Positions 23,319-54,247 of a stretch of DNA of 54,247 nucleotides are shown in pieces (positions within the stretch are counted from its first letter, which is position 1; every line of letters begins with the position of its first letter). The stretch is from an uncultured virus (IMG/VR IMGVR_UViG_3300010345_000156) (Duplodnaviria; Heunggongvirae; Uroviricota; Caudoviricetes). Where the stretch lies: IMG/VR virus record IMGVR_UViG_3300010345_000156. The stretch is one strand, 5' to 3'. Below the pieces are notes generated by a model. It made no database searches. It saw only the letters and a list, made by a program, of their open reading frames with translations, and was not told the DNA's origin. The position numbers and the translations under genes are program-made.

Positions 23319-23872
23319 TTTATATTCAACTCTTGAATCAACTTTTCGGTCATTCTCTTTGTTCTGCGTCTTCCATATAATCTAGCAGTAAATGATGTTA
23401 CTATAGACACAAAATCTTGCATCAAATCTTTCTCATCCTCAACAACCTTGTTGATAACAACCAATTCACCATCCCACAAAGATTCAATGTAATTGAATCC
23501 AAACCTAGTGAGACTGTCTTTATGTTCTACAACAATTTTTGAAACTTTTTTATTTTTCAACAAAGACAACAATTTCTTTCGTTCATCATTCAAACCACTA
23601 CCACACTCTTCAACAACAATATCAACAACCCAACCATTTACGATGCAAAAATCTTGAACTCTCTTAGATTGGGAGTGCAAATTTCCTTTATTCTCACTGG
23701 AGGAAACTCTAGCATATGTAGCAACAAGACCCTTCGGGTCTTTTGTTCCATCAGGAACAATTACAGTGCCCGTCTGAGTGCGATACGCACCGGGAATCAT
23801 TCCTGATTTGAAATAATTCCAAGCAGTCTTATAACAAACTCCCAATTCTTTTGCATATGTACTTAACTTCAT
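23315..23872 (-). CDS. tnpA: IS607 transposase (HTH + serine recombinase)
   Basis: MKLSTYAKELGV.Y.TAW HTH, YARVSS catalytic Ser, GSGLN, EHKD-LTRFG, DFVSIVTSF.ARLYG.R. Confidence 0.93.
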   Translation of the reverse strand: MKLSTYAKELGVCYKTAWNYFKSGMIPGAYRTQTGTVIVPDGTKDPKGLVATYARVSSSENKGNLHSQSKRVQDFCIVNGWVVDIVVEECGSGLNDERKKLLSLLKNKKVSKIVVEHKDSLTRFGFNYIESLWDGELVVINKVVEDEKDLMQDFVSIVTSFTARLYGRRRTKRMTEKLIQELNIK

Positions 23873-28209: not shown

Positions 28210-28211
28210 AA

Positions 28212-36638: not shown

Positions 36639-37411
36639 TCTATCATAATGTAATAGTAAATCAAAATGCTGCATACAAAGAAAATCATGCACTAATTCTA
36701 AACTCTCAAAGAATCACTTTAGAACAACCTCATCATTATTGGCAACAAGCAAACCTTGATATATCTCTTTCTAAAATCCTAAAACCTTCTAAAACAATTC
36801 AACAAGCAATTTACATAGGAAGAATCCCACTACACTTTGGACATTTCTTGATAGAAGGTCTTCCTAAAATGGCAGATCTTCCTTTCCTAAATCTTCCCTT
36901 CATAGGCTATCTCACAAAAGGTTTCCTTCCACCAAATATAAAAGCTATGGAAGAAGATCAAGCAAGAACTCTGATAAAAATGATTTCTAAAAACAAATTC
37001 ATAGAAATCAAAGAAAATGAAAACATCCTTGTCAAAAACCTAATCTTCAATGATCCGCCTTTGACAATCTCTCATACAGTACATGATCCAGAAAAAATGT
37101 CTAAACTCATTCAACATATCACAAAAGAATGTAAAAAACTACATCCTATGAATGAAATCGAAAATCTTTACCTAAACAGATTAGATGAAGAACTTAAAGA
37201 AAATTCTAATAACCCAAATGATCCAATCACTCTACAAATTGCAAAAGTAGCAAATGCAAAATCCCTAGAAGGAAACACCGGATCAAATACTCATCTATCT
37301 ATGTTCGCAAATAAATTCACTAAAACAAACTTCATCCCAAGAAATGATCCAGATCAAACAGATAGAAATCAATTACTCTGCGATCTTATTAGAATGTATA
37401 ATAAGGAATAA
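36635..37411 (+). CDS. Glycosyltransferase family 61 / DUF563-like protein
   Basis: HFGHFLIEGLPKM, VKNL, LYLNR, QI...ANA....G..GSNTH.SMF. Confidence 0.7.
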   Translation: MIYHNVIVNQNAAYKENHALILNSQRITLEQPHHYWQQANLDISLSKILKPSKTIQQAIYIGRIPLHFGHFLIEGLPKMADLPFLNLPFIGYLTKGFLPPNIKAMEEDQARTLIKMISKNKFIEIKENENILVKNLIFNDPPLTISHTVHDPEKMSKLIQHITKECKKLHPMNEIENLYLNRLDEELKENSNNPNDPITLQIAKVANAKSLEGNTGSNTHLSMFANKFTKTNFIPRNDPDQTDRNQLLCDLIRMYNKE

Positions 37412-37415
37412 TACA

Positions 37416-38156
37416 ATGAAACTATATAAATTTAGAAACATCAATTCGGAAAAAGATTATAAAAGAGTTTTAGAATATATTGAAGAAAAATTTCTACACG
37501 CAGCAAAAATCGCAAATTTCCCAGATACATTTGAATTAGATATATGCAAAATTGAAATCAAGTATGATGAAAATGATATTGATAATTTAATGAAATATAA
37601 TTTGAAACAATTAAATAAACCAATACCAGATAAAAAGACTTTAGCACAAATTTTAACAGACAATCCAAGTAGCGAGTATTACAGATTTGAATTAACAAAT
37701 TTAATAAATGAATTAAAAGAAATTGTTAATATATGCTCACTTTCAAAATCTTATAATGATTCTAAAATGTGGGAAGATTATTCTAAAGGTATTTGTATAG
37801 AAGTTGAAGTAATGAAACATAAAAATATAAAAGAACGTCATGTAAAATATACAAACGAAAAACCAATTATAAAATTACCTAAAGATATATTCAATACAGA
37901 ATTACTTAAAGAAAAACTATTACAATATAAATCTGAATCATATAAGTTTGAAAATGAAGTAAGATTCGTAAGTGATAAACAAAATAAATTACCATTAGAA
38001 AATATATCAAAAATTTATGTAGGATATAATGTAAGTAAATGGGATAAAGACAAACTAGTGAAAAATGTCCATAATATAGATCCTAATATTAAAATTTATG
38101 AGATTATCAAAGATAAAGAATATTATAAATTTATAGAAGGTGATGAACTTATATAA
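37416..38156 (+). CDS. DUF2971-like protein
   Basis: LYKFR...CSLS......MW.DY..GICIE...VKY...K...YKFENEVR...I..IYVG. Start moved to MKLYKFR. Confidence 0.7.
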   Translation: MKLYKFRNINSEKDYKRVLEYIEEKFLHAAKIANFPDTFELDICKIEIKYDENDIDNLMKYNLKQLNKPIPDKKTLAQILTDNPSSEYYRFELTNLINELKEIVNICSLSKSYNDSKMWEDYSKGICIEVEVMKHKNIKERHVKYTNEKPIIKLPKDIFNTELLKEKLLQYKSESYKFENEVRFVSDKQNKLPLENISKIYVGYNVSKWDKDKLVKNVHNIDPNIKIYEIIKDKEYYKFIEGDELI

Positions 38157-39341
38157 TGCGTCAAATAGTTTACTAATTAAGTATCCTTTAGGAAATATCT
38201 ATAGTAAACACTGAGACAAAATTAAAATAAACCGATAAAAAACTATTGGAGAAAATTGATGAAATATATCTGGAAAGCATAACAAATAATTTATATTAAA
38301 ACTTTCTCGAAACAATTGCAGAAAATAATTTATGAAATTTCTTTATACCAAATATTTGAATGTCTCCATAATGTAGAATGCTAAAAATAGTCAAAAATGG
38401 AGCTTTTTGCCGAAACCCTTATGTCAAGTGATTTTTCAAAATAATTTCCTATACACTCTCCACCACTTTCCCTTATGTACTATTCTGAAACATATCCTAA
38501 ATCCACTTTCAAGTTATGACAAACCACTTCGGCAAAAAGCCTAATCAATTTCTTTCAATACCATTTCTCAATACCATTTCCTAAAACAATCAATTCCCAA
38601 TACCACTTTGCCCAAATAAGCCCTATAATTGCCTATATACTGCCCAAAATAGCCTAAATGATATACCCAGTAACTTATAAACAATCTTTCCACATAATGT
38701 TAATAGATTGAATAATATCAAATACAATTTCCTAAAATCTATTCCAAAATAAATGAATCAAATTTCATCCCATATATTCAACCAAATTCAATTCAATATA
38801 ATTCTTTCAATGGTTTTCAATTTCATTCAATTTGATTTTCATTCAATGTTATCCTAAATCATTCCCTATCTAAATTGCCTGAAATAGCCTTAAAACGGTC
38901 TAGGATACGGTATGGGGGTAAATGTATAAACGTTGTCTGGAAAGGATTTTAGGCATATCTAATCAAGAAATTCGACAAAGTTTTTAGGATAGTCTTTCAG
39001 GAAAAATTGAAGAAATGAAAGTGGTATAAGGTGGTTAAAGGAATTTGAAAAAGAATGACGGGGCTTTATAGCAAGATTTTGGATAGATCTTTCTTAAAAA
39101 GTGGTCTAAGAAATTTGTAAATAGACTCTTTTAAACCCTTGACAAATTGGAGAAAGTTTACTAGGCAAATTTTATTGGCTTTCTCAAATATTTTCCCCAT
39201 AGTATTTCTTCAGTATTTTGTCAACAACTATTTCAGAAATTCTCAAATATTTTTCCTATAGTATTTTCCTAAATTTTTGTCAAGGGTCTAAAAGAGAAAA
39301 TATGCAAAAAATTTCTAAAACTCTTTTGACTAAATACATAT

Positions 39342-39614
39342 ATGATAGAGATTAGCAAAGATTTTCAAATAGATTTTTCCTATAGTAATTCCAATAAGTT
39401 CTTTACGAAGACCGCGAAACACCTACGGGATCTGTTAGCTGAGGGAAGAAATGCGGGAAATTTAATCGAAAGTTTTAATCTAGATCATTTTAGAAAGAGT
39501 GTTTTAAGTATTCCTAAAAGAGTTTCTACAAAGTTCAAGAGCTTTTTGCTGAAATGTTCCCTATATGGATTGTTCATTTTGCCAACTTATGTAAAGACTT
39601 CAGGAAAGAATTAA
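39342..39614 (+). CDS. Possible late ORF (or non-coding transcript)
   Basis: ACTAAATA lies 5 nt before the ATG; the codon pattern is atypical. Confidence 0.3.
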   Translation: MIEISKDFQIDFSYSNSNKFFTKTAKHLRDLLAEGRNAGNLIESFNLDHFRKSVLSIPKRVSTKFKSFLLKCSLYGLFILPTYVKTSGKN

Positions 39615-39786
39615 AGCAAAATTTTCTAAAACATTGCTGGAAAAATTGAAACGAAATTTTATGATATTTTTCGTGTATTTTTGTTTTAACTATTTTAGGA
39701 ATTGATTTAGAAATTTAATTTGAGAAAATGATTGACAATACAGATTAAAGATTGTAAGATAGTAAATGACAGAGGAGTGAATAAAA

Positions 39787-40209
39787 ATGAAGATAATAAA
39801 TGACCATGAATATGAAGCGATATTAGAAAAGATTAAATATGATATTAATACTATTGGAATAACCGCGCATATAATAGATCCTGTAAAATATGATTACGAT
39901 ATTAAACGAAATTCTTTAATAGATCCTTCAAATGATATGTATAAGTTAATTTCAAATGGTGCCTTAATATCTGCTCCTGGATTTCCTTATAGATATATTA
40001 TATTTACGCCAGAAGAAATGAAAACTATTTTTGATATAATTTCTAATAAAACTAGCAATATCAAAAAGGAATTTACATATGAAGAACTAAGCCTAGAAAC
40101 AAATTTTAATTTCTTTATTTCAGATATTAATTCTAAGATTGTTTTCAATAAAGAAAATGTTTCAAAAGTTCCAGATAGTATTTCAAGTTATGCTGATATG
40201 ATTATTTGA
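39787..40209 (+). CDS. Hypothetical protein; paralogue of 11772..12134
   Basis: Promoter at 39732, GAGGAG RBS, shared motifs. Confidence 0.7.
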   Translation: MKIINDHEYEAILEKIKYDINTIGITAHIIDPVKYDYDIKRNSLIDPSNDMYKLISNGALISAPGFPYRYIIFTPEEMKTIFDIISNKTSNIKKEFTYEELSLETNFNFFISDINSKIVFNKENVSKVPDSISSYADMII

Positions 40210-40358
40210 TACCTTTTCCTATATTCTTTCCTAAAAAGTTTCCTAAAATCTATTCTGGAAAAGATATGCGGCCTTTATAGACAACTTTTTAGGATACTGC
40301 TCAAGAAATTGGATCTAGGAATTTTGAAAAAGAATCGAAATTAAATTTACAAAGACCC

Positions 40359-40387
40359 TTGACAAATCAAATTAAAGATGGTATCAT
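40359..40387 (+). promoter_or_regulatory. Promoter for structured RNA copy 1 and the polymerase gene
   Basis: TTGACA-aatcaaattaaagatgg-TATCAT. Confidence 0.7.
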
Positions 40388-40434
40388 ATAATTAATGAAG
40401 AGATTTAGAAATCTGGAAAAATATTTTTGAGCGA

Positions 40435-40582
40435 GTTTGATAAATAATTGTATATGGAAGTAATCTTAATCACTGGAAAGATTTTGATTGCTAGGAGCCT
40501 AAAAACTCTGTCCAGTGATAGCAATTAGAATCTAACCAAATGAGATTAAAGATGAAACCAGAAAATGAGAAAAGTATCAAAC
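40435..40582 (+). ncRNA. Unassigned pseudoknotted structured RNA, copy 1
   Basis: Helices 40435-42/40575-82, 40470-77/40511-18, 40479-93/40519-33 and 40494-97/40506-09; all covary with copy 2. Confidence 0.8.
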
Positions 40583-40588
40583 AACCGG

Positions 40589-40620
40589 AAAGCCTTAGAG
40601 AGAAATCTTTAGGGCTTTTT
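40589..40620 (+). terminator. Intrinsic terminator between RNA copy 1 and the polymerase gene
   Basis: AAAGCCTTAGAGA-GAAA-TCTTTAGGGCTTT followed by TT. Confidence 0.8.
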
Positions 40621-40643
40621 CTATTAACTATTTTGGAGAAAGG

Positions 40644-41996
40644 ATGTTTAAATTAAGAATATCAAAAGATGTTGTAGAAGCTATTAGGATAAATTTTTCT
40701 AATATTAAGGATAGAAGTTTTGCAATAGGAATTTGTCATAATATTGTTAAAAATAAAGATGGAAAAATTGTTCATGAAAATAATGAAGGCATTTTAACAA
40801 GATTGACAAAAACTGTTTCAAGCAATAGAGATAAGATTTTAGAAATATTACAAAAATTAAAATCTGTTGGAATCATTTGTTTACATCATGATAAGAAAGA
40901 TCCTCAGTTTAATACATTCATTTGGGAAGCACAGTTAGAACAAAATTTCCATAATGAAGATTGGTATGATTTAACTGAAGATATGCCAGAATATAATCAT
41001 TACAAAAAATTGATGGAAAGAGTTATTAACAGAAAGAAATTAAAAGATTCTAATATAAGATTGGATGAAAAGTTAATAGATAAGATTCAATCAAATGAAG
41101 CAAAAGAAATTCTAAAGAAAAGAAATAATGGAGAGTTTGTAGAATCACTTTTCAAAAATTCTAAATCTGGAAGAATGTTTAATATCTATTCCAATATGTC
41201 TAAAGATATAAGACATCAAATGAAAGATCTAAATGGACGAAAACTTTGTGAAATTGATTTCAAATCTTGTCAAATAGCTATCCTCGGGAAATTGATTTTT
41301 GAAAACTCTTTGAAAACAGCTTCACAAAAAATGCAGGAAGAATTAAAACATTTCCAAGATCTTGCCTATAATGGTTTCTATGAATATTTCTCAGATGCGT
41401 TAAACATTCCTAAAAACCTATTAAAGAAATTATCTCTAAAATTCTTCCTAGATAAATCTAATCAAAGAAATGAATTAAACTTTTCAAATGATCTAATAGC
41501 AAAATTCTATAATTCAAATTTAGACATCAAAAATTCCTACATTTCTTTTATCAATCTATTCCAAACAACTTTTCCGGAAATTTCAAAATACATTTCAGGC
41601 ATTATCAAAAACCTAGAACATGATGGAAAAACTCTAGCATCTTTATTACAATACCAAGAATCTAAAGTTTTGAAATCCCTTCTAGCAAAAATCAAAACAA
41701 TCAAAGATCCTGAATTTAATTTCTTTTCAATTCATGATTCAATCATCTTTACTGAAAATCATTCTAAAGATGTGAAGAAAATTGTATATGAATTCATCAA
41801 AGATCTTAAATCAAAAAATTTATTCATAAAATCAAAATATTCAAATCTAAATCAAAATACCAACAAAGAATATGATGAATTCCATTATGTCGCTAAAACT
41901 GATCCGAATGAATTTTTGCTAGGAATCTCCGCTCTCGAATCTTTCTTTACATGTTTTGAAGTAAATTTAGATCAATCCTTTCCCATAATCTCCTAA
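40644..41996 (+). CDS. Stand-alone divergent family-A nucleic-acid polymerase (PolA / T7-RNAP-like palm), with no exonuclease domains
   Basis: Motifs in the expected order: SGRMF...KDIR, LCEIDFKSCQ (motif A), KNLLKKLSLKFF (motif B-like), LQYQES, SIHDSII (motif C). GAGAAAGG RBS. Confidence 0.65.
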   Translation: MFKLRISKDVVEAIRINFSNIKDRSFAIGICHNIVKNKDGKIVHENNEGILTRLTKTVSSNRDKILEILQKLKSVGIICLHHDKKDPQFNTFIWEAQLEQNFHNEDWYDLTEDMPEYNHYKKLMERVINRKKLKDSNIRLDEKLIDKIQSNEAKEILKKRNNGEFVESLFKNSKSGRMFNIYSNMSKDIRHQMKDLNGRKLCEIDFKSCQIAILGKLIFENSLKTASQKMQEELKHFQDLAYNGFYEYFSDALNIPKNLLKKLSLKFFLDKSNQRNELNFSNDLIAKFYNSNLDIKNSYISFINLFQTTFPEISKYISGIIKNLEHDGKTLASLLQYQESKVLKSLLAKIKTIKDPEFNFFSIHDSIIFTENHSKDVKKIVYEFIKDLKSKNLFIKSKYSNLNQNTNKEYDEFHYVAKTDPNEFLLGISALESFFTCFEVNLDQSFPIIS

Positions 41997-42209
41997 ATTC
42001 TTTCTACTATAACCATTTCCAAATCAGATTTCATTCATTCTGGTTTTTGATCATTTCTAGGAAATCCTAATTCAATTTCCCGCATAGACCTATCTAAAAT
42101 CCTTTCAAAACAATTCCCTATACTATTTCCTATATCCTTCCCTAAACCCTCCCTAAACTGTTCCTAAACACTTCCTGAAAAAAAATTACAAATAGACTCT
42201 TCTAAACCC

Positions 42210-42504
42210 TTGACAAATTTCAAAAAAGTTACTAAGAAATTTCTCCAAAAAGATTTCCTAAAAATATGTTGACAATTCTTTGAAATATTTCTAGCACGGT
42301 TTCGGAAAAAATTCTAAAACCTCTCTTCTAAACCCTTGACATTTTTGAAAGAATTTACTAGGAAAATTTTTAGGAAATCTTTTTAGAAATTCTTTGAAAT
42401 AGTTGTTGACAAATTCGGAATATTTTTCTAGGCATTGTTTTTGAAATGATTTCCGAAAATAATTTAAGAAAAGACTTGACGTTTTTTGGAAATTTTACTA
42501 GGGA
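42210..42504 (+). repeat. Tandem array of five TTGAC-N17-CTA(G/A) promoter-like sites
   Basis: Starts at 42210, 42269, 42336, 42406 and 42476. Confidence 0.75.
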
Positions 42505-42757
42505 ATTATTTGGGAAATTATTTGATATTATTTTGGGCTTTTTGAAATAGTATCTTGAAATTTTTCGGAAATAGTATTAGGAAAAATATAGGGGGCCTTT
42601 ATATAGGGAGAATTTAATTTTGCATTTAGTTTCCGGATCTACAGTTTCGGAATTTTTTGCAATATTTACTTTTAGACACTTGACGGAAACTTAAATTTGT
42701 ACTAGTTGCCGAAAGTGTTGTCTGAATTTGGTATTGGAATTTAATCTCGAAAAATGC

Positions 42758-42786
42758 TTGACTATTGAAATTAAATGTGGTATAAT
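42758..42786 (+). promoter_or_regulatory. Promoter for structured RNA copy 2
   Basis: TTGACT-17-TATAAT with an extended TG. Confidence 0.75.
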
Positions 42787-42817
42787 GAATAATGAATTGA
42801 TGAAAAGAATTTATGAA

Positions 42818-42970
42818 CATTTGATAAATAATTATATAATGGAAGTAATCTTAATCAGTGGAAAGATTTCGATTGCTAGGAATGTAAAAAGTTCCATCCA
42901 CTGATAGCAATTGATATCTAACCAAATAAGAGAATTAAGATGAACCCAGAAAATGAGATATTATCAAATG
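42818..42970 (+). ncRNA. Unassigned pseudoknotted structured RNA, copy 2
   Basis: Helices 42818-27/42961-70, 42855-62/42897-904, 42864-78/42905-19 and 42879-83/42891-95. Confidence 0.8.
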
Positions 42971-43003
42971 AGAGCACTATGGATTTATTCTTAGTGCTTT
43001 TTT
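42971..43003 (+). terminator. Intrinsic terminator after RNA copy 2
   Basis: AGAGCACTA...TAGTGCTTT followed by TTT. Confidence 0.8.
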
Positions 43004-43022
43004 GCATTTTTGGAGAAAGGTT

Positions 43023-43173
43023 ATGTATGAATTAAATAATAAGAATTCATACATGGATAAAGTCTGGAAAAGAATATTGGAGAATTCGTTCTAAAAAAGG
43101 AAATAAAACTGCATTGAAATCAAAAGTTTCATATGAAGAGTTTTTAGAAATTGCTAGAGAGTGGTTAAAGTAA
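43023..43173 (+). pseudogene. Small ORF with an apparent +1 frameshift
   Basis: After the GAGAAAGG RBS, MYEL stops after 23 codons, but removing one A gives MYELIIRIHTWIKSGKEYWRIR...EIAREWLK*. Confidence 0.4.
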
Positions 43174-43201
43174 ATATATCATAGAACAAAGGCGAAACAA
43201 A

Positions 43202-43633
43202 ATGCGTAAAAAAGTTGTATCATATATCAATTCAGATAGAAAATATAGAAAAGCAAAATCTCCAAAAAACTTAAAATGCCTAGATCAATTCTCTCTAAAA
43301 GAATTCCTGGAATTAGATTTAGAACAATTGAAATCAGAAATTGAATTTGATCGAGACAATTATTACATTTCATTCAGACTCACAATATTAAACGAAAATT
43401 ATTATTCACTTGATCGAATTCATTTCATAGAATTACTGCAAAAATTGAAAACACTTCTTTTGAAAATTGTTGATAATACTACAATGCAACTAATTCTTAT
43501 CAATCAAAATTCAAACAACACTGAAACAAAATTTATGAATGAAATATTAAAAGCAATGATAAAAGAAATTGAATTTGAAATTAATATTGAAATTTTTGCT
43601 AAGTATCATGGATGGAAAAATTTACAACAGTGA
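43202..43633 (+). CDS. Hypothetical protein
   Basis: 143-aa ORF with an AAAGG RBS. Confidence 0.6.
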   Translation: MRKKVVSYINSDRKYRKAKSPKNLKCLDQFSLKEFLELDLEQLKSEIEFDRDNYYISFRLTILNENYYSLDRIHFIELLQKLKTLLLKIVDNTTMQLILINQNSNNTETKFMNEILKAMIKEIEFEINIEIFAKYHGWKNLQQ

Positions 43634-44174
43634 TACCAATTTTTTGCAATTTCTACTTTTAGACACTTGACAAAATTCAATTCCTAGACTAGCTCCCTAA
43701 ATTGAATTCCCTATATGAATATCCTGAATTAATTTGTGGAAAGAATGTAGAAATTGAATTGTCGAAATGATTGTAGGAATGAATTGTAGGAATAGTGTCG
43801 AATTAATTTAGGGAATAGATTTGTTGGGAATTGATTTAGGAAAAATTTTAGGAAATGATTGTGGAAATTAAATTGAGGGCGCCTTTATAGGAAGAATTTT
43901 AGGAAATGATTGTGGAAATTGCTCTACGTTTCAATTTCAAAATTTCAATTAATATTCTCATTTTTAATCAAATTTATTTCCAGAATCATTTATCAATTTA
44001 TTTTCACATTTCATTCCTACATTTATTCTCTACACTCTATTCCTACAATTAAATTCCTACACTCTATTCCTACAATTCAATTCCTAAATCATTTTCATTC
44101 AATTTTTCGTGCTGATTTTCTACACTCTGTTTCTGAATCATTTTCTATATAGGTGAATGTGTAGAGAGTGGGAT

Positions 44175-44847
44175 AGAAAATTTTTTGTAGAAACTCCCTT
44201 GCCAAACTAGAAGTGCTGCACTATCTTTGTATGTATGGAAGTGAACGAATGATCTTCCGGAAACAAAGTCTAGAAAGGAATTTGAAAATGTTTGTGATTT
44301 TGTTGAAAGAAATTGGGAACATTCATTGTTACTTTCGTGAATCAATCAATGGTTCGGAATTTGATGCTATTCGGAATTTTAAGGATCGTTCTGGATTTTC
44401 AGCATTCATTTTTTATTCTGAAGATGAAGCGAAAGAGAGATTGAATAAAATCAAAATTCAATTTAATATTTGTTCTAGAATGGAATTTGAAATTGTTCCA
44501 TTGAATGAATTGCAACAAAAGATTAGGAACATTTTTCTTAATTGAAAGGAAACATGAATCACACATTTTTGAACAGATTGCATTTCTTTTGTATTGCTTT
44601 TTTGATTCCTTATATTGTTGCATTTTTGTTTTTAATGTCAATGTCGAATGAATTTGTGACAATGAAGCATTTTTATTTCATTTTGATTTTGGGAATTGTT
44701 GTTGCTGGAATTTCTACAGTCTCACAGATTCTTAAGAAAATTTTTTGTAGAAACTCCCTTGCCAAACTAGAAGTGCTGCACTATCTTTGTATGTATGGAA
44801 GTGAACGAATGATCTTCCGGAAACAAAGTCTAGAAAGGAATTTGAAA
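44175..44847 (+). repeat. 113-bp identical direct repeats (44175-44287, 44735-44847), each carrying a promoter, leader and RBS
   Basis: Base-by-base identity, including TTGCCA-17-TATCTT and GAAAGG. Confidence 0.92.
44288..44545 (+). CDS. Hypothetical early protein
   Basis: Start MFVILL follows the cassette RBS. Confidence 0.6.
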   Translation: MFVILLKEIGNIHCYFRESINGSEFDAIRNFKDRSGFSAFIFYSEDEAKERLNKIKIQFNICSRMEFEIVPLNELQQKIRNIFLN

Positions 44848-44850
44848 TGA
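44554..44850 (+). CDS. Small membrane protein reading into the duplicated promoter cassette
   Basis: Two hydrophobic helices; no stop codon before the repeat. Confidence 0.5.
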   Translation: MNHTFLNRLHFFCIAFLIPYIVAFLFLMSMSNEFVTMKHFYFILILGIVVAGISTVSQILKKIFCRNSLAKLEVLHYLCMYGSERMIFRKQSLERNLK

Positions 44851-44993
44851 AGTATGCTTTGGTTTTTGTTGTCGGAATTTTGATCGGACATTTCGGACCT
44901 GTTTTTTCGGCAAAGTGGACTGCACATAAGGCAAGCCAGGGAATGCATCTTGTCGGAAAGGGCTTGGACACTGTTGGCAATTTGATGCGATGA
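44847..44993 (+). CDS. 48-aa membrane-associated peptide (not in the ORF track)
   Basis: MKYALVFVVGILIGHFG...; resembles 51770..51919. Confidence 0.6.
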   Translation: MKYALVFVVGILIGHFGPVFSAKWTAHKASQGMHLVGKGLDTVGNLMR

Positions 44994-45014
44994 GTTTTTG
45001 AAAAATTTGTTTCG

Positions 45015-45051
45015 GAAGAGAGTGTAGGAAATGGTTTCTGCACTCTCTTTT
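45015..45051 (+). terminator. Intrinsic terminator (near-copy at 46025-46060)
   Basis: GAAGAGAGTGTAGGA...TTCTGCACTCTCTTTT. Confidence 0.8.
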
Positions 45052-45162
45052 CATTTTGTGAATTTTTTTGAAGAAACTCCCTTGCCAAACTAGAAGTCAT
45101 GCACTATATTTTGTTCTGTAAGGTTGAGAGGTCAGTTTTCACAATCATCGAAAGGTAGAACA

Positions 45163-45996
45163 ATGAGAATCGAAATTAAGCATAAGACAACGAATGAAAT
45201 TTTGGTTATTGGTGAAGGTGATACTGAATCAGAAGCAATTCTTAATGCGATTAAGAATTCTTTCAAACCAGACGAAAATTTTGCGAATCTGGAAAGTGCG
45301 AATCTGGAAAGTGCGAATCTGTATCGTGCGAATCTGGAAAGTGCGAATCTGTATCGTGCGAATCTGGAAAGTGCGAATCTGTATCGTGCGAATCTGGAAA
45401 GTGCGAATCTGTATCGTGCGAATCTGGAAAGTGCGAGTCTGAATTTTGCGAATCTGTATCGTGCGAATCTGGAAAGTGCGAATCTGGAAAGTGCGAATCT
45501 GTATCGTGCGAATCTGAATTTTGCGAATCTGTATCGTGCGAATCTGGAAAGTGCGAATCTGGAAAGTGCGAATCTGGAAAGTGCGAATCTGGAAAGTGCG
45601 AATCTGGAAAGTGCGAATCTGGAAAGTGCGAATCTGAATTTTGCGAATCTGGAAAGTGCGAATCTGGAAAGTGCGAATCTGGAAAGTGCGAATCTGAATT
45701 TTGCGAATCTGTATCGTGCGAATCTGGAAAGTGCGAATCTGGTTCATGTAGATTCTCGAAACATTCGATTGGATGAGGATAAGGAAATTCTCTTCCGGAT
45801 GGATTGTTGTGTTTGGCCTATTACGATTTGGCACAATAAGGTTCACATTGGTTGTAAGGAATTTGAATTTTCGGAAATTTTGGAAATGACAGAAGAGAAA
45901 GCGGAATCTATCTACGAAGGTGCAGGAAAAAGGTGGAAGCGTTTTGGAAATACGTTGAAGACTGCGATTCTTGACATTCAGAATTCCGGAATTTAA
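45163..45996 (+). CDS. Pentapeptide-repeat protein
   Basis: About 30 ANL(ES/YR/NF) units and a C-terminal IGC-containing domain. Start follows GAAAGG. Confidence 0.92.
   Translation: MRIEIKHKTTNEILVIGEGDTESEAILNAIKNSFKPDENFANLESANLESANLYRANLESANLYRANLESANLYRANLESANLYRANLESASLNFANLYRANLESANLESANLYRANLNFANLYRANLESANLESANLESANLESANLESANLESANLNFANLESANLESANLESANLNFANLYRANLESANLVHVDSRNIRLDEDKEILFRMDCCVWPITIWHNKVHIGCKEFEFSEILEMTEEKAESIYEGAGKRWKRFGNTLKTAILDIQNSGI
45283..45741 (+). repeat. 15-bp coding tandem repeat
   Basis: GCGAATCTG + GAAAGT/TATCGT/AATTTT. Confidence 0.95.
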
Positions 45997-46170
45997 TTTC
46001 CACAACGATTTCAAACAAATTTCCGGAAGAGAGTGTAGGAAAGATTCTGCACTCTCTTTTNNNNNNNNNNNNTTTTTTGAAGAAACTCCCTTGCCAAACT
46101 GGAATTTTTGCATATATTTTGTTCATAGAGTTGAGAGATAGAGTTCACCACACTAAAAAGGAGAAAGAAA

Positions 46171-46431
46171 ATGTTCGGACTGATTTTGGCAATGGTTTTT
46201 TCGGGAAATTCGGATGATCGTTTGTCGGAAGTTTCTTTGGAAACCAGCATCAAGAAGTTTGTCATTGTTTCGGACAGTTTCAAGATTAAGGCACCGAAGG
46301 AAGTTACTTGGGATGATATGAATAAGCTAGATCCGAATAGTACTGATTTTCGATTGTATCATTCAGATGAAGAGTTGAAAATGATTAAAGATCATTTACA
46401 TCATTTTGGAATTGATTATTATAAGAATTAA
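46171..46431 (+). CDS. Hypothetical protein with a signal-like N-terminus; paralogue of 48232..48462
   Basis: Shared SGNS.DR..E.SL...KAPKEVTW.DMNKLDP. Confidence 0.7.
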   Translation: MFGLILAMVFSGNSDDRLSEVSLETSIKKFVIVSDSFKIKAPKEVTWDDMNKLDPNSTDFRLYHSDEELKMIKDHLHHFGIDYYKN

Positions 46432-46717
46432 AATCAAATTTCCCAACACCCTGCAATATTGCAACTGTCACAATTCAATTTTCACAATAGGAGTTTTCTA
46501 AATGTTTTCTTCGTTTTCTAAGTTTTTCTCTTCTGAAGTTCCCGAAACGAAGTTGTCGGATTGAATAGAAACAAAAGTGAATTGAATGAACAGTGTGGAA
46601 TTCTTGAAGATGGACAGTTTGAATTTTTGTAGAAATCCCCTTGCCAAACTAGAAGTGCTGCACTATATTTTGTTCTGTAAGGTTGAGACAAACAAATCAT
46701 CGAAAGGAAGTGCAGAA

Positions 46718-47374
46718 ATGAATAAGAGACTTGATTCTGCAATTAGATTGTTGAAGGAAGGAATTAGAATTTTCGAGAATGAATTTGAATCCGAATCGAA
46801 AGAAGAACAAAAAACTATTCTGAAAAATGCAACGATTAATTTTGGAATGATTGTTCAAATTTTGGAATTTAATGTTGGAATTGTTTCGGATAATATTTGC
46901 ATTCTTTCAAATGGTGGTGAATTAAAAGATTTGGAGGATTGAAAAATGTTGATTTTGATTGATGGGAAACAAATTCATGAAATGGGATATCGAAGCATTA
47001 ATGACAGGACAAACAGTGATATTCTTTTTAGGGAATATATGTCTGGAATGATTTCTACATTTGATTTTGTTTATTTCGGATTCTAACTTTTGAAACTCTC
47101 TATCCAAAAAGAATTGAAAGAAATTTTCGATGCTTTGTCTGAAATTGATAAGATAAAGTTATTTGATTATTTCTATGGAGAATCTTACAAATTTATTCCA
47201 ACAATTCCGGATATGCGAGAGGGGCAAAGATTTTCCTATATTCTTTCTCAAATTATTCCTGAAAGTTCTTGCCTGAAAATCGTACATCCGAATTTGTTTT
47301 ACTGCTCAGAATCGGAAATTGTTTCAGAATGTTTAGGAGAATTTTTTGAGAAATTGATTGCTGAAAATTGCTAG
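46718..47374 (+). other. Three small early ORFs (46718-46942, 46946-47086, 47090-47374)
   Basis: They follow the promoter at 46641 and precede the terminator at 47421-47455. Confidence 0.55.
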
Positions 47375-47570
47375 GAACTAAAGTTTTAAGACTGAGGTAT
47401 CGGAAAACTTAGCAATTGGCAAGACTTTAGGGATTTATGCCTTAGAGTCTTTTTTCATGTTGTAGAAAAATTTTTGAAGAAAGTTGTAGACAAGACTGAG
47501 AAGATGTAGTATATTTTGTTTATAACCAAGGGAGATATGAACAAACTCCCTAAACTCGAAAGGAAATATC

Positions 47571-48059
47571 ATGAACTGCGAAGAAATCATCCAAAATAAG
47601 GCAAATCTTTTTTGGGAAAATCTTGAAAATGCAAATCTTGAAAATGCAAATCTTGCTTGGGCAAATCTTTCCAATGCAAATCTTGAAAATGCAAATCTGA
47701 AATTGGCAAAACTTTCTTGTGCAAATCTTGAAAATGCAAATCTGAAATTGGCAAAACTTTCTTGTGCAAATCTTGAAAATGCAAATCTTGAAAATGCAAA
47801 TCTGAAGCATGTAGATGCTCGCAGTTTGCGAATGTCTGAAGAGAAGGAGATTTTGTTCCGAATGGATTGTTGTTTGTGGCCTATCACAATTTGACACAAT
47901 GTTGTTTCGATTGGTTGTAAGGATTTCACATTTGAGCAGATTTTGGAAATGACTGAAGAAAAAGCGGAAGAGATCCATGAGGGTGCTGGAAAGCGGTGGA
48001 AGAGGTTTGGAAATACCTTGAAATCTGCAATCAAGGACATTCAAGATTCTGGAATTTAA
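47571..48059 (+). pseudogene. Second pentapeptide-repeat gene with an in-frame TGA
   Basis: TGA at 47892-94 where the paralogue has TGG (PITI-W-HN). The frame continues with strong similarity to ...DIQDSGI*. Confidence 0.85.
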
Positions 48060-48076
48060 TAATTCAAATTTTCCAC

Positions 48077-48108
48077 AAAAGGACTCTCAGAAATGGGAGT
48101 CCTTTTTT
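48077..48108 (+). terminator. Intrinsic terminator (near-copy at 51991-52022)
   Basis: AAAAGGACTCTCA-GAAA-TGGGAGTCCTTTTTT. Confidence 0.85.
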
Positions 48109-48231
48109 GTTTTCTTCAAAGCATCTAAAAATTTCTAAGAAACTTCCTTGCCAAAGTTCTTCCTATGTGTTATCTTTTGTTTATAAGGTTGAGAGAGTTC
48201 GTCACAACGCCACACAACAGGAGAAAATAAA

Positions 48232-48462
48232 ATGTTTGCTATGGTTCTTGCCTTGATTGTTTCCGGAAATTCTGAAGATCGGATGCCGGAAATTTCTTTG
48301 GATTTTTCCGTCAAGAAGATTTCTATGGTTCGTGACACTTTGAAGGTGAAGGCACCAAAGGAAGTCACTTGGAATGATATGAACAAACTCGATCCGGAAT
48401 CTATTCGCGTCGTCGAAAAGCCTTCGGAAAAGTTTGTTATCATCTATTCCGATTTCAACTGA
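48232..48462 (+). CDS. Hypothetical protein; paralogue of 46171..46431
   Basis: AGGAG RBS; shared motifs. Confidence 0.7.
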   Translation: MFAMVLALIVSGNSEDRMPEISLDFSVKKISMVRDTLKVKAPKEVTWNDMNKLDPESIRVVEKPSEKFVIIYSDFN

Positions 48463-48494
48463 ATTTTTCACAATCATTTGAAGGAGAAATAGAA

Positions 48495-49012
48495 ATGTAT
48501 ATGCCATTTGTGAAGACTTTGGAAGTCGATTTTACAATGTCTGGTGAAGATGAGTCGAATAAGATTCTTTACCAAATTAAGCATAAGGAGAATAAGACAC
48601 CTTCGGAATTCCATAATGATTTGGTAATTGCAAAGAAGCGATTTTTTCAAGATACTATGATGGACTTGGAAGATGAAAACTTTGCTGAAATTTTGAAGGA
48701 AATGGGATATGATGTTTCGATTATCATTCCTGATTTTGAAATCTCAATCTACTAAGGAGAAAGGAGAATTTTGAAATGAAAAAGTTCGTTCTAATCTATG
48801 AAGATAATACGAAATGTGTTAACCATAGATTTTTCCAAAGCATTCCTGAAAATATTCCGTTTAATATCGGAGTAACGTATTTTGCCGATGATTTCGATGA
48901 TGATTTTCCGGAATCTGAAGAATATAAGTTCCTAGAAAAGTTGGATATTGATTTCGAGCCAGATGAAACTATTTTGATCCTAGAGATTCCCGAAGAGTTT
49001 AAGATCATCTAG
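48495..49012 (+). other. Two acidic early ORFs (48495-48755, 48776-49012)
   Basis: AAGGAG RBS before each. Confidence 0.6.
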
Positions 49013-49198
49013 AATCCAGTTTAGAGCAGTTTCAGGCGTTTTGATCGAGTTACCTAGCAATGCTCTACATCTTCCCGAAACCAGTCTTCAGAAGCCTTAG
49101 AAACGTTTCTGAAGATTTTTCATTTTATCCCTTGCATTTTTCGGAAGAGTTGTGTATATTTTGTTCTATAAGGATTTCTCAAACAAACGAGGGAAGAA

Positions 49199-50087
49199 AT
49201 GGAAATCAAAAAGTATCCTGTCTTTGGAAGATTTCACGCAAGATTTGATTCCTTTGCCGGATTGATTCCAGTAAAGCCGATGAGAAAGATTATCCACAAC
49301 GATCAGAATAGGATTTCCGTATATATTCGCGTGAAAGTTCTGGAAACAATTGGAGCATATAAGAAAGGAATGATTTTGGAAATTCCTTCTCAAGATTGCA
49401 TTCCACTTTCCCATATCAAATATCCAAAAGGAAGTCACGCAAAGATTTTCGGAAATTTTGAATGGATTGATTTGTGGCCTGAAGAAACTTCGGAATACCT
49501 ATATAAAGGAATTGTTTAATGAAAAAAGAATCAGATATCATTTTCGAGGATGGATGTTATTTTGTAATCATTGAAGGCAAAAGAATTTCCGTCAATAAGA
49601 ATGTTTCGACGCATTCTATTGTAGATTCTCAATATGAAAATACAAAAGATGGAAAGTCTATTGCGATTGTTCGTTGTAAGTATTTGACAAAGAAGGAATC
49701 GAAATGAAAATGGAAAATATTTGGATTAGCAAGACTCTAGGAAAGCATTTATTCTTAGTACAGATTGAGAATTGTTTTTTTACACTTTCTCGTCAAGGAG
49801 ATTTGGATATTTGGGAAATTGATTTCAAACAATGGAGAAAGATTATTCCAGATGATATTCCAAAATGGGCGCAAGAGAAAATCAAGTATCTAGAAAACTA
49901 TACTGAGCAGTTTGAAGTCAAGTATGAATATGAAGAGAACGGAATTTGGAAAAAAGATTCGGAATACATAGACGTAAATTGTTTCAAATGGCAAGAAAAT
50001 ATGCACGAAAAGGCGCAACAAAAGGCACTAAGAATGTTTGAAGAGACTGGAAAGAATGTCAAAATTTTGTCTGTAACTTTCTGCTAA
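49199..50087 (+). other. Three early ORFs (49199-49519, 49519-49707, 49704-50087)
   Basis: They follow the promoter at 49132 and have coupled start/stop codons. Confidence 0.6.
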
Positions 50088-50186
50088 GACTTTCTAGAAA
50101 ATTTTTGAAGAAACTCCCTTGACAGAATAAATTTCTTTAGTATATTTTGTTCTGTAAGGTTGAGAGAAGTTCACCACAAACAAACG

Positions 50187-50714
50187 ATGAAAGAAATGTC
50201 TGAATTCATTCCAGAAACTTTGGATCTTTGGAAACGTCCTTCTCATTATTTTGGTGCAGAATGGGAAGGGTGGTATGTTTTTCTTACTCGGAATCGGGAT
50301 TCTTCTATTCTCAAAACAATGAATTTTGATATTGCTTTTGAAAGATTGCAGAAAGTCTATAACAAAGAACTTTCAATTGATGATATGCCATCTGTTCAAA
50401 TCATTTCCGAATCTCATTGGGCGGTTGGATATGTTGAATGGATTGCTATTCACAGTTCAGATATTGAAGCATTGAAAGAAGCGGATAAGATTAATTCCAA
50501 ACTCGAATCATATCCATGTTTGAATGATGATAAATTGTCTGAATTGGAAGATAAAGAAGCACAAAGAGTTTGGAAAGAAAATTACAACATTGAAGAAAGA
50601 TTGGAATACATTCGGGAAAACCGTAGCCAATTTGAATTTCGTGATTATTCCGATATGATTTCCAATGTTCGCGGCAATTCATTTTGTGGATATGCTTCTG
50701 AACTGATTTATTAA
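50187..50714 (+). CDS. Hypothetical early protein
   Basis: HWAVGYVEWIAI...YPCLND. The start was moved downstream of the promoter. Confidence 0.65.
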   Translation: MKEMSEFIPETLDLWKRPSHYFGAEWEGWYVFLTRNRDSSILKTMNFDIAFERLQKVYNKELSIDDMPSVQIISESHWAVGYVEWIAIHSSDIEALKEADKINSKLESYPCLNDDKLSELEDKEAQRVWKENYNIEERLEYIRENRSQFEFRDYSDMISNVRGNSFCGYASELIY

Positions 50715-50730
50715 AAAGGAGCATTGAGAA

Positions 50731-51060
50731 ATGGAAAATGAATTCAAACGTACAAAGGTTCATGTATTCCAAAAAGGAAATGTGAAAATTAATCATGCAA
50801 TTATCATTAAACAAACAGATGATATTGTATTGATTCATATTGACTTAGATCATAAGTATCCAAAAATTCAAGGAACAAATGATAATGGATATTTTGTTTC
50901 TAAGTTTGAAGATGATGATTTGAAAGAGCATAAACATTTTTCACTTCCCAATTTCAAAAATACACATTGGGAACATTTTGTATATGCTCCATGCCGTTAT
51001 GGTTTGCGGATAGTTCTAACAAAGAAGGAAATTTTTGAAGAAACTCCCTTGACAGAATAA
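50731..51060 (+). CDS. Hypothetical early protein
   Basis: ORF ends inside the next promoter repeat. Confidence 0.6.
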   Translation: MENEFKRTKVHVFQKGNVKINHAIIIKQTDDIVLIHIDLDHKYPKIQGTNDNGYFVSKFEDDDLKEHKHFSLPNFKNTHWEHFVYAPCRYGLRIVLTKKEIFEETPLTE

Positions 51061-51138
51061 ATTTCTTTAGTATATTTTGTTACATAAGAGAGGACGAAAA
51101 GATTCTCTCAAACCAAACCAGAAAAGAAAGGTAGAAAA

Positions 51139-51675
51139 ATGTCTTTGTCGAATACTGCTCTTTTGTCTGTCGCAACCGGATTTTCGGAATATGGTATCCG
51201 AGAAATCTTTTCCAATAACAAGAAGCGATACACCACTCTTTCGGCAAATTATCGGCAAGCGTTGAAGTTGAATAAGAATGTTTCTAAGGTCCGAAAGAAT
51301 ATTGAAAAGCATCTTGAGCGGGATGGAATGATTGTATTTGTTTCTCCACGAAATAAGAATTCGGAATTTTTGGGAAATGTTTTGAATTTGACTGAAGATG
51401 GAATTTATAATCTTCGGATTTTGCGATATCTTCTTTCCCGACATTATTTCCTTTGTTCTACTGCAATCGCTTTAATCGCTGGTTCTGTGAATGAACAGAG
51501 TGCAAATTCCACAATGCATAGAAAGTTTTCCGGATCTAAGGAAGATTTTCTCAATTCGATTTCCCGCCATGATTCCAAGATTCGTTTGGAAACTTTTTTG
51601 AAGACTCAGTTTGAAAAGTTGAAGTTTGACAAGAACAACATTTCGGAAATTTTGGAGTCTATGGAAATTCGCTGA
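51139..51675 (+). CDS. Hypothetical basic early protein
   Basis: Own promoter and GAAAGG RBS. Confidence 0.65.
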   Translation: MSLSNTALLSVATGFSEYGIREIFSNNKKRYTTLSANYRQALKLNKNVSKVRKNIEKHLERDGMIVFVSPRNKNSEFLGNVLNLTEDGIYNLRILRYLLSRHYFLCSTAIALIAGSVNEQSANSTMHRKFSGSKEDFLNSISRHDSKIRLETFLKTQFEKLKFDKNNISEILESMEIR

Positions 51676-51769
51676 AAAAAGTTCTTGACAAAACTAATTC
51701 GATGCATTATCTTTAATACATAAGAAAGGGAGAGATAAACAAACTCCCTAAAAGTCGAAAGGAAACAAA

Positions 51770-51919
51770 ATGCGTAATCTCATCATCGGTTTCATTCTTG
51801 GTTTGGTGATTGGAATTTTCGGTTTCAAGGTTTGTGTTCAGAAGACTTTGGATGCCGGAAATACTGTTTTGAAGGCATCTAGCAAGGTTGTGGATAGTGC
51901 AGGAAAGTATCTGAAGTAA
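51770..51919 (+). CDS. 49-aa membrane-associated peptide (not in the ORF track)
   Basis: MRNLIIGFILGLVIGIFG...; promoter at 51685 and GAAAGG RBS. Confidence 0.6.
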   Translation: MRNLIIGFILGLVIGIFGFKVCVQKTLDAGNTVLKASSKVVDSAGKYLK

Positions 51920-52211
51920 AAATCTTGGAAAGGATTTATCCAAGTACGAGAAATATAATGAGCAGTATCAAATTTCGGATACACTCATGGAAAGGACTTC
52001 GCAGAAATGGGAGTCCTTTTTTATTTTTGCATATTTACTCTTCTAAACCCTTGACAAAATTCATGAAAGTTTCTAGCCAAAATTTTATTGCTCAGATTTG
52101 TTTTTAATGGCATCTGAAAAAAGTTTGAGATACACCCTTGCAAAACTCAATTTTTGGACTATATTTTAATACATAAGAAGCCAAGATCTAACCAAACAAG
52201 GAGAACTACTA

Positions 52212-54247
52212 ATGTTGAAGAATGTAAGGAAATCATCTATTGCAATTTGCTTTGATGGTAAATTTGCTAACATGAAGAAAGAACAGAATTTTGTAATCTA
52301 TCCTGTCAGTGTTGGTGATAAGTATTTGAAGATTCAGAGTGACGGAAGAATGGGACTAATTTCTAAAGATGGGAAATTGGTAATTACTTCCAAGAATTGC
52401 AACTATCCTAATATGACAATTCTATATTCTGAAATGGAATTGAAGACTGCTAAAACGGATATTATTACTCCTGAAGAAATGACAATGATTCGGGAAGGAT
52501 TGAATTTGCATTCTATGGGAAATTGGTTGTGTGAAGTTTCCGGAAATGATGGCGCAAAGGATTTTTAATCTCTTTTGAATAACTTTTTGAAATAGGAGAA
52601 TTGAAATGAAAAAACAAAAGTGGTCTAAGTGGGATAATAACTTTGATGTGGCAGAGGATTGTTTACAAATTATTTTCGACAATATCCAACATAAAGTAAA
52701 TGAAAATGATTTCGACAATCAATATCCTACATTGTTTTCTGATGGATATGCATATTTTGTAGGATACCAATTTTATCCAAAGATGGAAAAGTTTTTGGTT
52801 AAAGTTTTGAATGAAAATTTTGATTTTGATATTTACAGAACGTTTGCTAAAGATTTGGAATCTGCTATCAAAAATGCGAATACTTCTTTTCCATCAATGG
52901 ATTCAGAAGGTGAAATAGAAGTCATTCCATATCCTTTTCAATCATAAGGAGAAATAAAATGTTTACTCTACTCCATTTGAAATCTTCTCGAAATGATTGT
53001 TTTGAAACAATTCGAGTAAAGACTACGCAAAGGAATGGAAAGTCGTTTATTCTATTCAATTCCAGATGGTATAAGGTAAAAAGTTGGATTGTACTTTCTG
53101 ACAATAATATCCGATATGCTCAAAACTATATCGGAAAGTTTTCTACTAAAGATCAATTTCGCATTCAATTTGTAGAAGGAGTTTAACAATGACATTTTCT
53201 GAAATCCTTACTGCTCTAAATCGTGGTAAGAAAGTCCATTGGAAGAATGAAGGATATACCGTTGTAGATGATTACAAAGGAAGTTATTATATCATGTTTC
53301 ATTCGGGAGATTGTGTAGGATTTTCCGAAGAGATTTATAACAATTCCTATTCACCACTTGATTTCTTTTTGGGAGAATAACAAAAATGGCTATTCCAATT
53401 TCAGATAAAGACTTGCGTGAAATGCCGATTCTTTATGAAAATCTTTCCGGAAATATTCGTTTGGTCAAGTCAGATGAACGAAATTTCGAGATCATTGTAA
53501 ACAAACGAGTGGGCGAGTCTGGAAGAGGTAGGAAAGGCGTCGTTCGGGATTGTTGGTGTAGTCTACCTTCCTATCACTCCACGGTTTCTAGCGCGTTCTA
53601 TAGGCTCTTGGATATGGAAATTTCCGAAGGTGACAGGATAGAGATTTCCAGTTTCCGCAACAGTTTGGAAGAGATCAAAAAGAATTTCCTAAATCAGATT
53701 TCCGGAAAGGTATAGAAATGTTTTGTCAAGCGGCCCACTATTATATTTTGGAATTGTTGAATGGAGAAATTGGAAAGAAGTATTTCAATTATTATTCCGA
53801 ATATCTTATCAAATACCTTGAGTGGAAATTGATGGAAAGGTATTATGAAATCTATGGAGAAAGGTTTCTATTCTCAGTATTCATTTATCGCAACGGAAGT
53901 AAAATCAATATTCAAGTTGATATGATTGATAAGGTGAATAATGAATTTCCGAGATATTATTATCGTTTGGAACTGAAAAATGGAATCATTTCTGAATTGA
54001 AGGAAGTCTAATGTCTAAAATGAAAATTGTTGTTTTGTCAAATTTGGATTCTATTCTCTATGGTTATTCAATTATCCATAAAAAGAAGAATCAATTCTTT
54101 ATTGGAAGTCATTTGAATAATCTTTCACAATGTCCAGAAAATATGATCGAACAAGTTAAGAAACAATGGGAGGAAGGAATTAAAAATGAAAACTGAAATC
54201 AAGTCTGGGTTTAATTTCGATCTTGAATGTGGTATTGCACCAGAAAC
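52212..54247 (+). other. Operon of small hypothetical early ORFs (52212-52568, 52606-52947, 52959-53186, 53189-53380, 53386-53715, 53718-54011, 54011-54196, 54186-end)
   Basis: Co-directional, closely spaced ORFs with GGAG RBSs after the promoter at 52138. Confidence 0.6.

Follow-up and report, generated by a model that had tools for sequence, protein, structure and literature searches.

What use could a phage have for promoters that keep a good −35 element and exact spacing, lack the final T of the −10 hexamer, and stand in arrays with no gene behind them? The question is raised by a 54,247-nucleotide stretch of DNA from an uncultured tailed virus (IMG/VR record IMGVR_UViG_3300010345_000156), the whole of which we call the window. 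It contains eleven sites of the form TTGAC-N17-CTA: that is, TTGACN, a 17-nucleotide spacer, and a hexamer that begins with TA and has a base other than T at its last position, −7. A preliminary description, made from the letters of the window alone, had suggested that these "dead" promoters are docking, decoy or sponge sites for RNA polymerase (RNAP) holoenzyme. By examining the sites within the window, in close relatives and in other phages, we argue from sequence that they are probably selected, non-firing docking sites for the host sigma70 holoenzyme; the complete reading, in which arrays of them would dock and capture polymerase on the entering end of the genome, hold that end, and feed the early promoters beyond, we regard as an even bet.

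Sites without −7T and their conservation

On rechecking the window sequence, all eleven sites were recovered with the coordinates and hexamers claimed for them, except that the site at 52051 lies outside the interval that had been given (39139..43695). The motif had been drawn correctly in its core but too short: it extends to A-tracts near −41 to −39 and −55 to −53, a CCC ahead of the −35 element, and a TAC ahead of the TA, the last in the same style as the phage's own live promoters. TTGAC-N17-CTA occurs 15 times in the window, 11 times without −7T and 4 times with it, against means of 0.93 (maximum 5) and 0.54, respectively, in 200 dinucleotide shuffles of the window; and 17 is the only enriched spacer length between 10 and 25 (15 matches versus 0–2 at each other length). 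These shuffles rule out chance as the source of the sites. By our own reading of the match list, −7T is present in 16 of the 17 gene-associated promoters with a 17-bp spacer, in line with what had been said of nearly all of them, and the lone exception, at 20332 (TATATA), has TATATT two bases further on. Also borne out were the gaps between the five tandem sites of cluster 2 (59, 67, 70 and 70 bp) and the lack of a gene after them: no plus-strand open reading frame (ORF) of at least 60 amino acids (aa) begins within 42210–43202. As a downstream product of cluster 2 we found neither an ORF of that length nor an Rfam match, a short RNA being still possible, and scans of the window for Rfam families and tRNAs gave no match.

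For this phage, the territory scanned for the motif is the window and its overlapping contigs. Of the four loci found in a metagenome scan, two belong to the same strain, and in the other two the polymerase-like protein described below is 90% identical. Comparison of eight sites in the window with those of relatives (15 comparisons) revealed no substitution in TTGAC (0/75) or TA (0/30) and few at −15 to −13 (4/45), versus 91/210 in the spacer, 83/375 upstream and 58/165 downstream; position −7 differs in 5 of the 15 comparisons, and a T is never gained. Across the cluster intervals of the window and three related contigs (L026, L028 and L029), TA follows at 17 bp in 33 of 34 TTGAC, and 32 of these 33 sites are without −7T, the exception overlapping another site with a 5-bp shift. 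The −35 is TTGACA in 30 of the 33, −10 is G in 23, and T is rare at −9 (4/33) and −8 (2/33) compared with a background of 36%; the array sites being mutually related, these 33-site counts are not independent trials. The sites thus show the TTGACA-17-bp architecture and the −12T/−11A of a constitutive sigma70 promoter, and not its −7T (0/11 in the window, 1/33 counting relatives), and they have the good −35 and TA without −7T that mark a CarD-dependent promoter. In L028 and L029, two extra reverse sites come after the five forward ones, so that both clusters are convergent. A scan of relatives had been proposed as a check, with lack of conservation together with lack of RNAP occupancy as one outcome that would speak against the idea; the sites are conserved, and their conservation tracks the positions contacted by sigma70, which gives real sequence support for docking or decoy. 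A scan of IMG/VR with the extended motif returned 18 single, unrelated matches, and the flanks of RegA relatives at 34–41% identity contain no array.

Neutral decay of duplicated early promoters would account for the shared flanks of the sites and live phage promoters such as 32429, and for the duplicated promoter cassettes nearby. We find it scarcely credible: because the −35 and TA are unchanged while neighbouring bases differ at 22–53%, the array sites are not products of decay, and the same design recurs in unrelated phages.

A probable genome end and recurrence in other phages

Gene coding halts at 38,156 and a conserved non-coding block comes next, with a switch from C-rich to G-rich sequence near 38,900, a near-invariant 31-mer at 38888–38918, strand asymmetry in the flanks, and GC skew at its lowest near 39 kb. 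In one sequencing run (X1), exact-match contigs have depths of 69.9 (35,000–35,728) and 84.6 (36,387–38,989) on the left, and of 143, 127, 175, 207, 165 and 149 (weighted mean 167.7) on the right (39,064–44,204); a minor strain in that run also rises, from 10.5 and 20.6 on the left to 42.7 and 51.8 on the right. If the 84.6 contig blends both levels, the step falls at 38,440–38,600. Because depth about doubles from ~38.4–39.0 kb, and because the contigs of relatives L028 and L029 both open at ~38,350 with starts no more than 7 bp apart, we place here, near 38,350–38,600 and with good confidence, the left terminus of a long direct terminal repeat. Measured from there, cluster 1 lies at ~0.8 kb and cluster 2 at ~3.9–4.3 kb. 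Two conserved outward-facing TTGAC on the minus strand (38394 and 38427) are also found ~80 bp or less from the inferred end, neither with a standard −10 at 17 bp.

We scanned IMG/VR for tandem pairs of sites with the 17-bp spacer, using the same pattern with a 21-bp spacer as control; after removal of duplicates and near-identical tandem repeats, 72 of at least 121 stretches were kept, and 50 of 108 for the control. Among the matches listed, a TG at −15/−14, which lies outside the search pattern, is present in 79 of 144 sites versus 6 of 100 in the control, and 26 of 42 first sites with TG are without −7T. A viral triple scan gave 61 loci (17 duplicates, 26 tandem repeats and 18 divergent unique loci), and 12 of the 18 divergent triples lie outside open frames and 6 inside. 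In 15 array blocks, hand-chosen around triple matches, 73 of 95 TTGAC have TA at 17 bp, 57 of these 73 have an extended −10 TG, and none has −7T, the pattern searched for having dictated no more than 39 of the 73; among the remaining 22 TTGAC, several keep the −35 and TG yet break the TA (e.g., TTGCGC, CAGCCC). Tandem or back-to-back arrays occur in at least 7 other lineages, as judged from neighbour genes, not trees; at one locus (L322), eight sites with a pitch of 66 bp, for the most part back-to-back, stand next to a live promoter. Arrays often stand directly upstream of terminase genes, which lie within 4 kb of 8 of the 18 divergent triple loci (part of the neighbour proteins were scanned), and in four records rated 97–100% complete the sites are concentrated in one region.

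In one uncultured podovirus family, TGGCAC-N5-TTGC, which we take to be the sigma54 consensus, is present in 17 of 27 loci, with 0 matches at control spacings. There it is interleaved with −7T-less sites (L065:2869–3150, L056, L083, L057, L080 and L102), and these arrays have the terminase arm on one side and the replication arm on the other. It is conceivable, at somewhat less than even odds, that unrelated phages independently evolved a genome-end element of crippled sigma70 (and sigma54) promoters that coats the terminus with idle RNAP, as an anchor or ratchet, a reservoir, or a packaging landmark.

Triples were also found at 122 or more GTDB loci; among those listed, 7 are duplicates, 59 tandem and 56 divergent, and 46 of the 56 divergent ones lie within open frames, mostly coding repeats. 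An integrative and conjugative element (ICE)-like element of Oscillospiraceae/Ruminococcus carries triple −7T-less sites with an extended −10 upstream of a replication initiator (L394:4001–4146, L339:4001–4146 and related loci); the frame overlapping them has 3 synonymous and 7 non-synonymous changes and may be non-coding. Two further patterns were seen: in L091:434–3085, three instances of −7T-less sites standing 39 bp ahead of repeated live promoters; and, in L270:3576–7438 and L038, −7T-less sites that recur with a 58-bp pitch across several kb and are linked with a AACTGGCAC/GTGCCA motif.

Proposed docking and capture, and competing explanations

As described in PMC7703639, −7T enters a pocket of sigma after the first 5-nucleotide bubble and then stabilises the open complex. 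The array sites keep what sigma70 recognises in duplex DNA and as melting begins (TTGACA, the 17-bp spacing and −12T/−11A, with UP-like A-tracts in the window phage and the extended −10 TG in other phages), and avoid −7T and, generally, T from −10 to −7. Because they optimise all that comes before −7T acts yet exclude −7T itself, we infer an early stall of the holoenzyme: polymerase would bind an array site, may open a small bubble, and would rarely reach a stable open complex, so that no transcription would follow. One holoenzyme footprint is ~70–75 bp. The 59–70-bp pitch would approximate one such footprint, orientation would be free, and occupancy would itself be the function; that occupancy may be a selected trait is suggested because the pitch is close to a footprint, orientation is free, genes are lacking, and sigma54 sites are paired with the arrays elsewhere. 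The docking or decoy part of the original suggestion therefore gains from sigma-contact conservation, gene-free convergent or back-to-back layouts, and recurrence in unrelated phages; a global sponge seems doubtful at ~12 sites per repeat copy. Its two other ideas, sites for a phage-modified RNAP or sources of replication primers, stay on as rivals and draw no direct support. Overlooked at that stage were the location at a genome end, the recurrence, and the rescue of −7T-less promoters by CarD.

How phage DNA enters once capsid pressure is spent, and how terminal repeats are marked and copied in phages without an RNAP of their own, are long-standing questions. In the weakest step of our proposal, arrival of the terminal repeat in the cell would let the arrays seize several polymerases at once; thus occupied, they would act as a binding ratchet that holds the end already inside, and would supply the strong early promoters beyond. 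Single −7T-less sites do occur 50–86 bp upstream of live promoters, including one in a relative (L026:15781, ~50 bp). Alternatively, the same occupancy could mark the end for packaging or for terminal-repeat copying.

Several observations weigh against capture and holding at a genome end. The terminal repeat is deduced from the depth of contigs, a quantity that does not give copy number; X1 also contains a second strain; a bin on the right-hand side of the step stands at 96.7; and contigs cannot show genome ends. Contigs of an RNA library (X6) span the arrays, but contigs cannot separate DNA from RNA. The site at 52051, far from the inferred end, suits feeding and not ratcheting. The raw totals of the tandem-pair scan do not separate the 17-bp pattern from its 21-bp control, and such counts are uninformative because the two give similar totals. 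No array was seen in segments of T5, SPO1, LUZ24, VpV262, DLP6, phiWae14, 207E48.1 and HMO-2011, or in the whole GenBank records of ICP2, PA11, ICBM1, VpV262, HMO-2011, AM24, Bestia and MW202484, and BLAST queries with one array, or with what lies next to it, turned up no close relative among cultured phages; being absent from the cultured phages checked, the element is dispensable for entry in general.

A further point against docking comes from CarD, which boosts −7T-less promoters up to 10–12-fold in R. sphaeroides (PMC7703639), and because of this rescue the label "dead" is premature. The sites could be conditional promoters, silent with bare holoenzyme and fired by host CarD or a phage factor, whose short non-coding RNAs would serve as primers, R-loops or pause signals in terminal-repeat copying and packaging. 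Most of the alphaproteobacterial promoters analysed in PMC8407463 are without −7T, and CarD-dependent promoters resemble the array sites in their TTG at −35, TA, UP-like sequence and lack of −7T, being weak with bare holoenzyme (PMC7703639, PMC8407463). Moreover, −11A is strictly kept (0/30 changes), a terminator-like hairpin (42631–42652) comes after cluster 2, and a protein with a winged helix and PolA palm is encoded between the clusters. We nevertheless hold this explanation, the chief competitor of docking, to be unlikely, though well short of negligible. The gene-driving promoters of the same phage keep −7T (the 16 of 17 above); CarD-dependent promoters are single and drive rRNA and housekeeping genes, whereas the arrays are ORF-free and tandem, convergent, or back-to-back to the point of overlap; some sites in other phages keep the −35 and TG and break the TA; and hairpins are fewer than the shuffle mean (1 versus 2.0).

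Bound holoenzymes might instead serve as a protective roadblock, slowing RecBCD/AddAB at the linear end for as long as the phage takes to make its inhibitors. Nearness to the inferred end and the orientation-free layout would suit such a role, and tandem high-affinity protein arrays do pause RecBCD, which is slowed to ~27 bp/s (bioRxiv 10.1101/142224). The same source reports that RNAP holoenzymes on promoters are pushed and soon evicted by RecBCD, and the roadblock idea is weakened because of this; closed complexes would be weaker still, and ~0.8 kb lies outside the first cluster. We consider a roadblock improbable.

Among known systems, the early promoters of phage T7 all point inward, and the window sites do not, 2 of the 11 facing outward. 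T7 is still the nearest precedent for the use proposed under docking and capture: host-polymerase sites are clustered near an end, in T7 the first-entering one and here one that may enter first, and transcription by host RNAP pulls the T7 genome in (PMC2771126). The difference is that T7 promoters fire, whereas the arrays are without the melting base and in both orientations. SPO1 and T5 have a long terminal repeat, which is probable here too, with repeated strong promoter cassettes and small genes, as seen in the window from 44199 onward (SPO1 as a precedent for host-takeover regions is mentioned in PMC2147016), but no −7T-less array is present in SPO1 1–14,000 or T5 1–12,000. Sigma54 holoenzyme, which stays closed without an activator, is also polymerase kept on DNA unopened; for the window sites, however, the block would be written in the DNA and not in the sigma factor, and the window contains no sigma54 consensus site.

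No description of −7T-less arrays was found in the open literature searched, most subscription papers and all supplements lying outside its scope, and we rate the array as a new kind of sequence element with a proposed function. If docking is correct, RNAP would be put to structural use, with the absence of a single base as the programme; if the sites are CarD-gated instead, the arrays would be a phage sensor of host state, new still, although as a variation on something familiar. That the sites can be switched by one base (restoring −7T or breaking the −35) makes a protein-binding model of entry testable. The arrays are also a possible sequence marker of genome ends in uncultured phages and, if docking is true, natural high-affinity, non-firing sites for the study of closed and early-open complexes.

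The polymerase-like gene and other features of the window

Table 1. Coordinates of the −7T-less sites and neighbouring features in the window.
Feature	Coordinates	Strand	Basis or remark
Non-coding, conserved terminal block with the inferred left end (near 38,350–38,600) of a long direct terminal repeat	38350..39100	.	
−7T-less site TTGACA-17-TAGGCA, cluster 1	39139..39167	+	Orthologs TATACC, TAGGCA
−7T-less site TTGACA-17-TATGGG, cluster 1, convergent	39196..39224	-	Ortholog TATAGG in L029
−7T-less site TTGACA-17-TATAGG, cluster 1, convergent	39255..39283	-	Orthologs TAGGAA, TATAGG
Conserved 90-aa ORF beside cluster 1	39342..39614	+	No Pfam match
Ordinary promoter TTGACA-17-TATCAT, before structured leader and polymerase-like gene	40359..40387	+	
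450-aa protein with N-terminal winged helix and family-A polymerase palm, between clusters	40644..41996	+	AlphaFold, Foldseek
−7T-less site TAAGAA, cluster 2 no. 1	42210..42238	+	Relatives TAACCA, TAGACA
−7T-less site TAGCAC, cluster 2 no. 2	42269..42297	+	Same in relatives
−7T-less site TAGGAA, cluster 2 no. 3	42336..42364	+	Relatives TAGACA, TAGCCA
−7T-less site TAGGCA, cluster 2 no. 4	42406..42434	+	Relatives TAGCCG, TAGGAA
−7T-less site TTGACG-17-TAGGGA, cluster 2 no. 5	42476..42504	+	TATGGG in both relatives
−7T-less site TAGTTG	42680..42708	+	Live promoter 78 bp downstream
Ordinary promoter TTGACT-17-TATAAT with extended TG	42758..42786	+	
−7T-less site TAGCTC	43667..43695	+	Before imperfect inverted-repeat block (~43740–44110)
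Early region, host-takeover-like, in which strong promoter cassettes recur with small genes	44199..54247	+	Repeat families D2–D5, −7T promoters
−7T-less site TAGCCA	52051..52079	+	Between terminator-like hairpin and live promoter 52137 (86 bp downstream)

The AlphaFold model of the 450-aa protein (mean pLDDT 83) matches PolA cores (Z 14.4, root-mean-square deviation 3.6, 246 residues) with no exonuclease domain seen, and in model comparison its winged helix matches those of TFE-alpha/Fur (Z 8.1). In 15 sequences R177 and D205 are invariant and D365 nearly so, giving the palm with two aspartates and a beta-hairpin arginine that is found in the TV-Pol enzymes, which are predicted primase-polymerases (PMC2579912). 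Of the RxxxK fingers motif, K261 is invariant, and the residue four positions earlier is K, not R, in the window and R in distant homologs. Like TV-Pol enzymes, the protein is a minimal viral family-A palm of 400–600 aa without a nuclease domain; unlike them, it has an N-terminal winged helix. It resembles TV-Pol and may belong to that family. No D5 helicase, resolvase, integrase or transposase was found among the window neighbours scanned (small ORFs being only partly covered), IS605/IS607 genes lie more than 16 kb from the gene, and searches of IMG/VR and GTDB with the protein came back without a locus. Position is all that links it to the arrays.

This 450-aa protein, as a primase-initiator, or else the terminase, could be the reader of the sites if these were promoter-derived iterons or end signals that mark an origin or the site of terminal-repeat duplication, with host RNAP incidental. 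In keeping with this are the winged helix and the PolA palm with its conserved acidic residues, the predicted primase-polymerase activity of TV-Pol kin (PMC2579912), the strand-asymmetric flanks and skew minimum near 39 kb, the terminase genes near arrays elsewhere, and the similar triple upstream of the replication initiator in the ICE-like element. Iterons or end signals appear decidedly unlikely all the same: conservation is confined to the sigma contacts and does not run the whole length of the site, with the 17-bp spacer free to change; the sigma70 grammar is common to unrelated phages, which spell it in promoter styles of their own, TAC in this phage and TG in others; sigma54 sites accompany it in one family; and no PolA-like neighbour was seen among the scanned proteins beside other arrays, part of those neighbours having been scanned.

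Folding of the clusters bears on the possibility of single-strand promoters of the Frpo/sso kind, in which convergent copies would fold, RNAP would bind the hairpin, and loss of −7T would silence the duplex form. Cluster 1 folds with a z-score of −2.80, pairing the −35 and upstream arms of 39139 and 39283, and an array in another phage (L087) with −3.34. A Frpo/sso hairpin presents both −35 and −10 as duplex; pairing in the cluster 1 fold ends before the TA. However, inverted copies of one motif pair by construction; all sites point the same way in the window's cluster 2 and in the L274 array; and the cluster 2 fold (z −2.55) leaves the promoter elements unpaired. A double-stranded DNA tailed phage, moreover, rarely exposes long single strands, and we regard this explanation as very improbable.

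The window comes from a large phage of the T4-like kind and encodes tail tube gp19, RegA, PhoH and NAD ligase. TAAATA, which we take to be the T4 late promoter consensus, occurs upstream of several late genes; T4 late-promoter identity was also considered for the array sites and rejected, as the late genes here use TAAATA. Four sequencing runs that contain 0.83–0.96 of the window's words carry the label activated sludge, one of them perhaps the source (runs with small word shares were left out as habitat evidence), and inference of a host from two accessory genes yielded none.

A GGSCCTTTATAG-like motif has four plus-strand copies near the clusters (39061, 40270, 42594 and 43881); two cluster-linked copies are kept in both relatives, and it may be a site for a phage protein. 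A structured element is repeated at 40439–40640 and 42823–43000, directly behind a late-promoter-like GATAAATA; its first copy has a fold z-score of −4.25, a strong terminal hairpin and no Rfam match, and L028 and L029 retain this copy ahead of their polymerase-like gene. The element is a candidate for a small RNA or a leader. The imperfect inverted block at 43740–44110 is rich in TAGGAA/TTCCTA. In the early region (44175–44864, 45124–45996 and 47571–47894), there are an identical duplicated early promoter cassette of 113 bp and a pentapeptide-repeat gene with a second, shorter copy. Elsewhere, three TnpB-family (IS605/IS607-type) elements (15079–16344, 19060–20289 and 21987–23872) each begin at a TAAATA late-promoter-like sequence, and 26663–29309 holds a lycopene-cyclase-domain membrane gene with its own promoter and, two genes on, a membrane protein of unknown family.

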